DNA from: Candidatus Bipolaricaulota bacterium
GTDB lineage: Bacteria > Bipolaricaulota > Bipolaricaulia > RBG-16-55-9 > DRXL01
Assembly (NCBI GenBank): GCA_026414955.1
Contig: JAOAIA010000001.1
Span: 1 to 44,257 of the forward strand
Direction: 5' to 3'
Length of the DNA: 44,257 bases
Shown here: piece by piece, positions 40,603-43,011 of the stretch
Layout: every line of letters begins with the position of its first letter
Position numbering within the stretch: position 1 is the first letter of the stretch
Notes under the pieces: model-generated
The model's input: the letters and a program-made list of their open reading frames with translations, nothing else
Told to the model about the DNA's origin: nothing
Database searches by the model: none
Made by a program: the position numbers and the translations under genes

Positions 40603-42495
40603 ATGGGCAAGTACGAACAGACTTTTCGCGAATCTCTCGAAAACCCTAAACAATTCTGGGGCAGGGCTGCTGAATCTATCACCTGGTATAAACGCTGGGA
40701 GACGGTGCTCGATGCGTCCAATCCTCCGTTTTATAGATGGTTTGTGGGCGGTGTGCTCAATACGTGTTATAACGCTCTCGATCGGCATATCGAGCGTGGC
40801 CGAGCTGATCAGCTCGCTTTAATTTACGATAGCCCCGTGACAGATACGATTCAGAAATTCACTTATTCTGAGCTGCGCGCCCGCGTGGCCAAGATCGCGG
40901 GCTTTTTGAAAGACTTGGGCGTCACCAAAGGTGACACCGTCGTTATTTATATGCCGATGATCCCAGAAGCGTTGATGGCCATGCTCGCCTGTGCGCGCAT
41001 CGGCGCGGTGCACTCTGTCGTTTTCGGAGGCTTTGCTCCCAGAGAATTAGCGATTCGCATAGATGACGCCAAGCCCAAGATCGTGCTCTCGGCGTCGTGC
41101 GGGATCGAAGGGAAGAAGATTATCCCGTACAAGCCCTTACTAGACGAAGCAATCGCTCTAGCTACGCATAAGCCGCAGAAGTGCGTGATCTATCAGCGTC
41201 CGCAAGTCCGCGCTGAGTTGATCGAAGGGCGTGATCTCGATTGGGTCTCGTTAGAACAGAAAGCCCAGCCTGCTGAGTGCGTCCCCGTTGCAGCGACGGA
41301 CCCCCTGTATATTCTCTACACATCAGGCACAACTGGAAAACCCAAGGGCGTGGTGCGCGACAACGGCGGCCATGCTGTCGCGCTCTCCTGGACAATGCAA
41401 TATATCTATGGGATCGAACCGGGAGATGTCTACTGGGCTGCTTCGGATGTGGGCTGGGTCGTGGGGCATTCGTATATTGTCTATGGCCCATTACTGGTGG
41501 GCGCCACGACCGTGATGTACGAGGGCAAGCCCGTCGGGACGCCCGATCCCGGTGCTTTCTGGCGCGTCATATCGCAACATAAAGTGAAAGTGCTCTTTAC
41601 GGCTCCCACGGCGTTTCGGGCGATCAAGAGAGAAGACCCCACAGGGGAATATCTCAAAAAATACAAGCTCTCTCACTTCCAGGCGCTCTTTCTTGCCGGG
41701 GAGCGCACCGATCCAGATACGTACTATTGGGCCTCTGAGTTATTGAAGAGACCCGTCATAGATCACTGGTGGCAGACGGAGACGGGCTGGGCCATCGCGG
41801 GGAACTTTTGCGGCTTAGAACTTCTGCCCATCAAGGCTGGCTCAGCGACCAAGCCCATGCCCGGCTATGACGTGCGAATACTCGACCCCAGCACCGGAAA
41901 AGAGCTGCCGCGCGGGGAGAGCGGCGTCATGGTTGTCAAAGAACCGTTGCCGCCCGGAACGTTTATGACCCTCTGGCAGCGCGACGACGATTTTAAGAAG
42001 ACGTACTTCGACCCGTTCCCCGGATACTATTTCACCGGCGACGGCGGATATTTTGACGAAGACGGCTATATATACGTCATGGGCCGTGTGGACGATATTA
42101 TTAACGTTGCGGGCCATCGGCTCTCTACCGGCGAGATGGAGGAGATCGTCGCTCAACACCCCGACGTGGCCGAGTGTGCGGTCATTGGGGTTGCGGACAG
42201 CCTCAAGGGCGAAGTGCCGTTGGGGTTTGTTGTGCTCAAGGCTGGGGTGCAGCGCGCTCACGCAGAGATTATCGCTGAAGTGAAGCAGAAGGTGCGCAAA
42301 GAGATCGGGGCTATTGCGTCGCTGAAAGACGTGCTCATTGTGAACCGTTTGCCCAAGACGCGCAGTGGAAAAATTTTGCGGGGCACGATGCGCAAGATCG
42401 CCGACGGGCAACAGTATACCGTGCCCTCGACGATTGATGACCCAGCGACTCTTCAAGAGATCGAGAGCGCGCTGCGCCCAGCGCATCTAAAATAA
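40603..42495 (+). CDS. prpE: propionate--CoA ligase / acyl-CoA synthetase (PrpE-like)
   Basis: The sequence is collinear with E. coli PrpE as I recall it: NPPFYRWFVGG, MPMIPEALMAMLACARIGAVHSVVFGGFA, YTSGTTGKPKGV, GRVDDIINVAGHRL and LPKTRSGKILR. Confidence 0.8.
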   Translation: MGKYEQTFRESLENPKQFWGRAAESITWYKRWETVLDASNPPFYRWFVGGVLNTCYNALDRHIERGRADQLALIYDSPVTDTIQKFTYSELRARVAKIAGFLKDLGVTKGDTVVIYMPMIPEALMAMLACARIGAVHSVVFGGFAPRELAIRIDDAKPKIVLSASCGIEGKKIIPYKPLLDEAIALATHKPQKCVIYQRPQVRAELIEGRDLDWVSLEQKAQPAECVPVAATDPLYILYTSGTTGKPKGVVRDNGGHAVALSWTMQYIYGIEPGDVYWAASDVGWVVGHSYIVYGPLLVGATTVMYEGKPVGTPDPGAFWRVISQHKVKVLFTAPTAFRAIKREDPTGEYLKKYKLSHFQALFLAGERTDPDTYYWASELLKRPVIDHWWQTETGWAIAGNFCGLELLPIKAGSATKPMPGYDVRILDPSTGKELPRGESGVMVVKEPLPPGTFMTLWQRDDDFKKTYFDPFPGYYFTGDGGYFDEDGYIYVMGRVDDIINVAGHRLSTGEMEEIVAQHPDVAECAVIGVADSLKGEVPLGFVVLKAGVQRAHAEIIAEVKQKVRKEIGAIASLKDVLIVNRLPKTRSGKILRGTMRKIADGQQYTVPSTIDDPATLQEIESALRPAHLK

Positions 42496-42528
42496 AAAGT
42501 TACAAGCCCAACTGCTGAACTTGTAACT
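42487..42528 (-). terminator. intrinsic terminator of the tRNA-Asn gene
   Basis: The minus strand reads AGTTACAAG-13 nt-CTTGTAACT followed by TTTTTATTTT. The T-run overlaps the prpE stop codon. Confidence 0.75.
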
Positions 42529-42548: not shown

Positions 42549-42875
42549 TGGCTCCTCGGGCAGGATTCGAACCTGCGACCCACCGGTTACGAGTGCCCTA
42601 ACATTTCTGCTAGGCTCGGACTATCTCTTCACCCGCTCATGGGAGAGCTAAGGGTGTCGGGCGCTTCTGAGGCCTTATTGGTATGGGCTACTCAGCCTCT
42701 AGTCTCTGCACGTTCCTGCCTACACTATGGCCCTTCGGCAGGCTTCGCTCAGGGTTACCATTCCAGCTCTTTCGGCTGGGGCGGGCTTCCCTGAATTCAC
42801 CCGATTTTTCAACCACGGTTTCCCGTGGAAGCTGCATTACTACAGCCGGTTGCTCTACCGCTGAGCTACCGAGGA
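42549..42875 (-). tRNA. tRNA-Asn (GUU) interrupted in the anticodon loop by a group I intron (exons 42875..42842 and 42589..42549)
   Basis: The joined exons read TCCTCGGTAGCTCAGCGGTAGAGCAACCGGCTGT+TAACCGGTGGGTCGCAGGTTCGAATCCTGCCCGAGGAGCCA. This gives a perfect cloverleaf with loop CTGTTAA. The acceptor and G73 are as in E. coli tRNA-Asn. Confidence 0.85.
42590..42841 (-). ncRNA. group I self-splicing intron (IC3-like core, no ORF)
   Basis: P1 pairs exon GCUGU with guide GCAGC, placing U.G at the splice site. P2 is CCACGG-GAAA-CCGUGG, P3 is UCGGGUG/CGCCCGA, P4 is CAGGG/CCCUG, P5 is CCAGC/GCUGG, P6 is CCUGCC/GGCAGG and P7 is GACUA/UAGUC. The intron ends in G. The core string AGAGACUAGA is as in the Azoarcus intron. 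Confidence 0.8.
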
Positions 42876-42885
42876 ATTTCAGCTT

Positions 42886-42915
42886 ATTATAGCATATAGG
42901 GCTGAGACGAGTCAA
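42886..42915 (-). promoter_or_regulatory. sigma70-type promoter of tRNA-Asn
   Basis: The minus strand reads TTGACT (42915-42910), an 18-nt spacer, then TATAAT (42891-42886), 10 nt before the tRNA 5' end. Confidence 0.7.
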
Positions 42916-43011
42916 GCTCTCCCTCATTCACGGGGTACTCTCTATGAAACTTATGCCCTCTCCCTGTAGTAGATTACTCGCTCACATCCCAGTCATACGA
43001 AAGGAGTGGCC

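Follow-up and report, generated by a model that had tools for sequence, protein, structure and literature searches.

A tRNA-Asn(GUU) gene split by a 252-nucleotide group I intron of the Asn.4Ug type in a Bipolaricaulota genome

Results

The interrupted tRNA-Asn gene and its boundaries

The window, i.e. the whole 44,257-nucleotide stretch of contig JAOAIA010000001.1 that was analyzed, carries on its minus strand a tRNA-Asn(GUU) gene whose two halves are separated by an insert. The gene, its insert and the adjoining expression signals are arranged as follows, in the order of transcription:

42886-42915, minus strand: sigma-70-type promoter, TTGACT, 18-nt spacer, TG-TATAAT, with its 3' end 10 nt ahead of tRNA position 1
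42842-42875, minus strand: tRNA-Asn(GUU) exon 1, 34 nt, comprising the acceptor 5' strand, the D arm, the anticodon stem 5' strand and the loop bases C U G34 U35
42590-42841, minus strand: 252-nt group I intron with A as its first and G as its last base, without an ORF of its own
42549-42589, minus strand: tRNA-Asn exon 2, 41 nt, comprising U36 A A, the anticodon stem 3' strand, the variable loop, the T arm, the acceptor 3' strand, the discriminator G and an encoded CCA
42488-42528, minus strand: intrinsic-terminator-like hairpin, 14 pairs followed by a T-run tail (TTTTATTTTA), 21 nt past the CCA end

When the genomic sequence was searched with ARAGORN in the intron-search mode, the gene was reported as tRNA-Asn(gtt) i(35,252), which places the intron between anticodon bases U35 and U36, i.e. 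between CUGU and UAA of the anticodon loop; neither ARAGORN in default mode nor the Rfam tRNA model detected the interrupted gene. The joined exons were recognized by ARAGORN as a clean 75-nt tRNA-Asn(GUU) cloverleaf with discriminator G and encoded CCA. The excision register is unique, as only the removal of 42841..42590 regenerates CTGTTAACC as it stands in the intronless orthologues. A preliminary description of this DNA, made from the letters alone, had proposed a minus-strand tRNA-Asn(GUU) gene split after position 35 by a 252-nt ORF-less insert, with a flawless 75-nt cloverleaf once the flanks are joined; the position and length proved right to the base, ARAGORN agrees on the cloverleaf, and the intron, with a P1 loop that consists only of GUAA, contains no credible ORF. 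A tRNA scan found no other tRNA-Asn gene in the 44-kb window.

The promoter matches the consensus at 11 of 12 positions and has the extended -10 TG; one site with this pattern was found, compared with 0.3 expected in shuffles. The terminator-like hairpin sits between the end of the tRNA gene (42549, minus strand) and the end of a convergent prpE-like CoA ligase gene (42495, plus strand), and may terminate transcription of both. As annotated here, the interrupted tRNA-Asn gene looks like an active monocistronic unit. In 42683-42927, the ORF list has one entry of 79 amino acids on the minus strand and one of 69 on the plus strand. Both share sequence with the promoter, exon 1 and the intron and, almost certainly spurious themselves, could be mistaken for genes.

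Uninterrupted orthologues in syntenic relatives

A scan of one genome per species, with the exact 22-nt 3' half of the window tRNA-Asn as the query, yielded 102 loci, most of which are ordinary intact tRNA-Asn genes. Six loci (L003, L019, L050, L065, L072 and L096) are syntenic with the window: the prpE-like gene adjoins tRNA-Asn in all of them, the DNA is 80-86% identical to the window, and tRNA-Asn is uninterrupted. BLAST alignments of the window to these six loci end at 42589 and restart at 42842, two points that are adjacent in the relatives. Thus, the insert is a clean presence/absence polymorphism with ends at the proposed splice sites. Exon 2 of the window gene shows no difference from its counterpart in the intronless Bipolaricaulota genes (100% identity). 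Each of the related genomes gave a single match to the tRNA-Asn 3' half, at the prpE-like/tRNA-Asn locus, a count that applies to incomplete metagenome-assembled genomes (MAGs) and to an exact 22-nt query.

Most of the six loci are labelled as Bipolaricaulota. The label 'uncultured Thermotogae bacterium' is attached to the MAG of L050 and also to that of L095, a further locus in synteny with the window. Across the prpE-like gene, L050 and the window have 84.5% DNA identity, and L095 reaches 68-75% over the upstream genes; given that the other close relatives are Bipolaricaulota MAGs, the Thermotogae label is probably wrong.

Group I signature and predicted fold of the insert

The preliminary description had proposed a search with the Rfam group I intron model RF00028 (Intron_gpI), and the match is highly significant: positions 42597-42851 on the minus strand score 77.4 bits (E = 4.3e-18; gathering score, 50), and the alignment covers the full model, positions 1-253 of 253. 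The unconstrained minimum free energy (MFE) fold of the intron has an energy of -101.7 kcal/mol (z = -4.72 against 200 shuffles), recovers P1, P2, P3, P4, P5, P6, P7.1, P8, P9.0 and P9, and agrees with the comparative model for every non-pseudoknotted helix. On the strength of its sequence and predicted fold, the insert at 42590-42841 is a real group I intron, with the following elements from the 5' to the 3' splice site:

42831-42846, minus strand: P1, in which exon GCUGU and the first intron base A pair with the internal guide UGCAGC; loop GUAA
42813-42828, minus strand: P2, CCACGG/CCGUGG, with a GAAA tetraloop
42798-42804, minus strand: P3 5' strand, UCGGGUG, partner at 42657-42663
42749-42794, minus strand: P4-P5-P5a domain, with P4 UCAGGG/CCCUGA, J4/5 AA, P5 GCC/GGU and P5a CCAGC/GCUGG
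42710-42748, minus strand: P6 and P6a, with P6 GCG/CGU, P6a CCUGCC/GGCAGG and a conserved AAG / AA internal loop
42700-42706, minus strand: P7 5' strand, G-A-GACUA with a bulged A, partner at 42618-42623, part of the guanosine-binding helix
42669-42699, minus strand: P7.1-type module, with outer stem GAGGCU/GGCCUC, inner mini-hairpin GUA-GCCCA-UAC and 3' bulge CAAUAA
42657-42663, minus strand: P3 3' strand, CGCCCGA
42630-42656, minus strand: P8 and P8a, with P8 CACCC/GGGUG and P8a GCUC/GAGC
42618-42629, minus strand: J8/7 and P7 3' strand, with J8/7 AAGAGA and P7 UAGUCC
42590-42617, minus strand: P9.0, P9 and omega-G, with P9.0 GAG/CUC, P9 CCUAGCA/UGUUAGG and a GAAA loop

P3 and P7 form the pseudoknot that is typical of group I introns, and the J8/7-P7 region fits the Rfam consensus AAGAUAUAGUC. 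Three structural details of the preliminary description are borne out by this model. A U.G wobble had been placed at the 5' splice site, and the P1 pair at this position is indeed U35.G, kept in 9 of the 10 sequences with letters there; P2 had been described as GAAA-capped, in agreement with the drawn structure; and the last intron base had been given as G, which corresponds to the terminal omega-G at 42590, directly after P9.0. Both L2 and L9 are GAAA loops; in subgroup IC3, GNRA loops at these places dock into P8 (L2) and into an 11-nt receptor in P5 (L9). Between the guide region and exon 2, no convincing P10 was found, so that this helix is at most weak. The P5 region reads GCCCGCC...GGAAUGG, without the canonical 11-nt GAAA receptor CCUAAG...UAUGG of the homologues from Stahlbacteria described below. 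These two features suggest that efficient folding may need a protein or the tRNA exons.

Homologous introns at the same nucleotide and covariation of the helices

Introns inserted at the same nucleotide of tRNA-Asn were found in three groups, namely Acetothermia, Stahlbacteria/WOR-3-type genomes and Paceibacterota, with RF00028 scores of 66-104 bits overall. The Acetothermia MAG (L069) has a 550-nt intron that is about 88% identical to the window intron over the common part. Seven Stahlbacteria/WOR-3-type MAGs (L007, L009, L010, L013, L018, L079 and L102) have introns of 259-298 nt scoring 81-104 bits, and a Paceibacterota (CPR) MAG, L093, has one of 322 nt scoring 66 bits.

Covariation was analyzed in an alignment of 11 sequences, consisting of the window intron, its nine homologues from the genome scan and Pam37.Asn.4Ug, a seed published by Williams (bioRxiv 10.1101/2020.01.27.920355). 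Standard pairs occupy 96.6% of the pair cells, compared with 29-40% in a slid control in which the 3' partners were moved by 1-3 columns, and 25 of the 52 pairs changed on both sides; none of 500 shuffles attained the observed pairing values. Several helices are paired in 100% of the cells: P3, with 2 compensatory pairs; P6, with compensatory changes in 2 of 3 pairs; and P8, with compensatory changes in 4 of 5. The P4-P5-P5a domain is paired in 94.9% of the cells. In P2, 5 of 6 pairs changed on both sides (for example, a G-C pair in the window is A-U in L069), as did 6 of 7 pairs in P9 and all 3 in P9.0 (window, GAG/CUC; Stahlbacteria, AUU/AAU; L093, ACG/CGU). In P7, none of the 6 pairs varies among the 11 sequences, and the terminal omega-G does not vary either; the string GA.AUAGUCC that spans J8/7 and P7 is likewise invariant across the homologues. 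The differences between the window intron and the L069 intron in P2, P6a (C-G vs. U-A), P7.1 and P9 keep pairing, which argues for recent selection on the ribozyme fold.

Two of the Stahlbacteria/WOR-3-type introns (L010:5013-5306 and L018:5194-5491) have in the P5 loop an extra palindrome (GTCATTGCGAG...CGAAGCAATCTCA), about 40 nt long, that is absent from close relatives and looks like a small MITE-like hairpin element.

Apart from the introns, the scan recovered partial tRNA-Asn 3' copies without a group I signal (L012/L016, L036/L039, L038/L076, L017/L099 and L054), some of which have an intact copy a few kb away on their contig. Integration of elements into tRNA-Asn probably left these partial copies behind as att-site duplicates. 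Matches that had the appearance of 'interrupted' tRNA-Asn genes in L012, L016, L017, L036, L038, L039 and L099, as well as the second match in L054, were discarded, having no RF00028 match.

The hairpin between P7 and P3' and the subgroup assignment

The preliminary description had singled out an additional hairpin between P7 and P3'. This hairpin exists; however, it is not unique to the window copy and recurs in a clade of bacterial and phage introns. The layout of a stem, an inner hairpin and a 3' bulge (G)UAAUA(A) is found in L069, in the phage introns that have the common P3-P4 string and in the Williams seeds Pam37.Asn.4Ug, Lys.2Ug, Phe.2Ug and Leu.1Ug. In the Asn introns of Stahlbacteria and of L093, two tetraloop hairpins (P7.1 and P7.2) replace the single P7.1 module.

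This module bears on the subgroup assignment. Helices inserted between P7 and P3' characterize subgroup IA rather than IC3. Instead of the short J7/3 of IC3, in which P7 and P3' are joined without a helix, the window intron has a 31-nt hairpin at 42669-42699, whereas the classical IC3 seeds pass directly from GACUAGAC to P3'. The likeness to the Azoarcus IC3 intron that the preliminary description noted is real at the level of core strings, given that the Azoarcus olearius Ile2.5Ug seed contains GCCCGCCC, UAUGGCAAC (7/9 vs. AAUGGUAAC) and AGAGACUAGA; because of the P7.1-type hairpin, however, a strict IC3 label is not supported.

Distribution and the P1-loop endonuclease gene

The distribution of the intron is patchy. 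It is absent from the six syntenic relatives and from the Stahlbacteria MAG L068, in which tRNA-Asn is uninterrupted, and present in one other Acetothermia MAG, seven Stahlbacteria/WOR-3-type MAGs and one Paceibacterota MAG. The intron of L069 (2498-3047, minus strand) has about 300 nt more than the window intron, and this extra sequence is located in the P1 loop. An ORF of 167 amino acids starts there, at intron nt 16, reads through P2-P8 and stops in J8/7 at nt 519; its N-terminal part matches the Pfam HNH family PF01844 with a marginal 22.7 bits (cutoff, 21.4 bits). The window copy, with its GUAA loop in P1, encodes no such endonuclease.

Patchy presence combined with a single insertion site in three phyla fits horizontal homing spread with later loss of the endonuclease gene, and we infer such a history for the window intron, in which the HNH protein would have had a role in the mobility of the Asn intron.

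Discussion

A probably functional ribozyme in a tRNA-Asn gene

We consider it highly probable that the locus is a functional, single-copy-type tRNA-Asn(GUU) gene split by an Asn.4Ug-type group I ribozyme (252 nt) that was horizontally acquired as a homing element. The intact and conserved fold indicates that the intron is probably functional, and it would be expected to splice as follows. Transcription from the gene's own promoter would yield a precursor of about 330 nt, in which the intron would fold into P1-P9, including the P3/P7 pseudoknot and, at the periphery, P7.1. The first step would be an attack by an external, P7-bound guanosine on the phosphate after U35, within the U.G wobble of P1 (GCUGU/GCAGC). 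P9.0 would then put the terminal G (42590) into the guanosine site, and the freed 3'-OH of U35 would attack the 3' splice site, joining CUGU to UAA in the mature anticodon loop CUGUUAA. The intron would have reached the window lineage horizontally as a homing element, of which the close relative L069 keeps the P1-loop HNH gene, whereas the window copy either lost such a gene or never had one. The genome may have no second tRNA-Asn gene; a single interrupted tRNA-Asn gene, if true, would make splicing essential.

Three other explanations of the locus deserve consideration. The interrupted gene could be a tRNA pseudogene that contains a decaying, non-splicing relic, with asparagine decoded by another tRNA-Asn outside the window. 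The missing homing endonuclease ORF, the P5 without a canonical receptor motif and the restriction of the view to 44 kb of the genome are compatible with such decay. Nevertheless, it is very unlikely: all core helices are intact, the differences from the 88%-identical L069 are compensatory, the exons match functional orthologues at 100% identity, and promoter and terminator are intact; furthermore, the relatives have one tRNA-Asn locus each that is detectable by the 3'-half pattern. A milder departure from autonomous splicing is somewhat less improbable, although we still regard it as unlikely, namely that the insert is a genuine group I intron that is spliced in vivo with the help of a protein cofactor, either a host factor or an endonuclease with maturase-like activity acting in trans. 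Many group I introns require proteins in vivo, and the weak P10, the non-canonical P5 receptor and the peripheral P7.1 module are all in line with such assistance. Conversely, the classical small bacterial tRNA introns, such as those of Anabaena tRNA-Leu, Azoarcus tRNA-Ile and Synechocystis tRNA-fMet, self-splice in vitro; the window intron has GAAA tetraloops in L2 and L9 that could serve in tertiary docking, and it encodes no protein.

A third possibility, of negligible probability, is that the tRNA gene looks interrupted through chimeric assembly, or that the insert belongs to another class, for example a group II intron, a BHB intron spliced by proteins, or an element with the tRNA as its att site. 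The probable att duplicates among the scan loci lend this idea what substance it has. However, the window insert matches RF00028 over its full length, homologous inserts occupy the identical nucleotide in independent assemblies from three phyla, and both tRNA exon halves are complete; the RF00028 match, the same-site homologues and the syntenic breakpoints together effectively refute it.

Implications

Because standard tRNA finders miss the interrupted gene, the genome would seem to be devoid of tRNA-Asn. Such apparent absence distorts completeness scores and decoding inferences in Bipolaricaulota, Stahlbacteria and CPR genomes. According to the paper on tRNAscan-SE 2.0 (PMC8450103), that program is not designed for group I intron detection, and a metagenome-closing study records the same practical difficulty with tRNA genes split by group I introns. 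The locus offers a compact, 252-nt natural ribozyme together with an intron-plus/intron-minus comparison among relatives, and the endonuclease-encoding relative provides material for studying the spread of tRNA introns between phyla. No new category is opened here, and a specialist aware of the 2020 survey would not be surprised by the finding.

A broader and more speculative generalization is conceivable, although we doubt it more than we believe it. The Asn.4Ug, Lys.2Ug, Phe.2Ug and Leu.1Ug introns might constitute, together with the phage introns, a distinct unnamed subclass with an IC3-like core and a P7.1 that has the conserved (G)UAAUA(A) bulge. Such a subclass would hop between distant, mostly uncultured phyla via a P1-loop HNH endonuclease, and would interrupt the only tRNA-Asn gene in streamlined genomes, making all asparagine decoding ribozyme-dependent.

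Comparison with known systems

A group I intron database lists the four classical tRNA hosts of bacteria. In a screen of about 80,000 genomes, Williams expanded the four classical hosts to 21 host/site cases, and the seed alignment includes Pam37.Asn.4Ug, an intron in tRNA-Asn after the fourth loop base, with U at position -1 and an omega-G. An Asn(GUU) host, of which the preliminary description was not aware, therefore has a precedent, and the window intron is a new example of this rare, computationally catalogued type. Documentation of the Asn.4Ug type in that preprint is computational only; a search of the full-text literature for peer-reviewed or experimental accounts of such an intron in bacterial tRNA-Asn found only organellar or unrelated papers.

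Among the 23 Williams seeds compared, Pam37.Asn.4Ug is the best match to the window intron (pairwise score, 236), aligns with it through P3-P9 and fits the same structure. The two have the same host, insertion site, U-1 and omega-G; in the window, the loop is CUGU followed by UAA after the intron, U precedes the intron, and G is its last base. They have in common the strings AAAUCGGGUGAAUUCA(A/G)GGAA, GCAGAGACUA, AGCGCCCGAC and (A/U)GAGAUAGUCC, as well as a single P7.1 hairpin with the loop ...ACCAAUAA. Pam37.Asn.4Ug differs from the window intron in its host genome, in its P1-P2 region, which is longer and contains one more hairpin, and in the sequences of P5, P6, P8 and P9.

The Lys.2Ug, Phe.2Ug and Leu.1Ug seeds and the phage introns L103-L120 resemble the window intron in the P3-P4 string, in the P7-P7.1-P3' layout and in a short P9 with a GAAA loop, but differ in host (tRNA-Lys, tRNA-Phe, tRNA-Leu, tRNA(CAU) and phage protein-coding genes) and in insertion site. 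A scan of the IMG/VR viral contigs with the P3-P4 string returned 17 introns (L103-L119), none of them in tRNA-Asn; this string is thus not specific to the Asn type. Whole-gene BLAST against annotated phage records did not detect an Asn intron either, giving only tRNA-exon matches and one tRNA(CAU) intron of a jumbo phage. The phage introns L103-L119 and L120 score 71-108 bits with RF00028 and have the window-type P3-P4 string and the P7.1 module; their hosts are tRNA-Lys(UUU) in L105, tRNA(CAU) in L118 and L120, and also protein-coding genes. L120 (OU509535.1, 334182-336670) lies in a 347-kb 'Klebsiella phage' record without annotation.

The Azoarcus tRNA-Ile(CAU) IC3 intron (Aol6.Ile2.5Ug) is the ninth of the 23 seeds by pairwise score. 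Like the window intron, it is small, lies in the anticodon loop of a bacterial tRNA and carries GAAA at L2 and L9, and the two have the core strings GCCCGCCC, AUGG.AAC, AGAGACUAGA and AUAGUCC in common. In contrast to the window intron, it is inserted after the anticodon (loop position 5), is 208 nt long, has the canonical CCUAAG/UAUGG receptor in P5, and lacks a hairpin between P7 and P3'. The self-splicing introns of cyanobacterial and plastid tRNA-Leu(UAA) (Leu.3Ug) and of Synechocystis tRNA-fMet are also group I introns in bacterial-type tRNA anticodon loops, but interrupt other tRNAs at loop positions 3 and 2, respectively, and are canonical IC3 introns without P7.1. The Synechocystis tRNA-fMet intron encodes I-Ssp6803I and shows that such introns can bear a homing endonuclease and move laterally; the endonuclease of the Asn family, as represented by L069, is of the HNH type, whereas that of the fMet intron is of the PD-(D/E)XK type.
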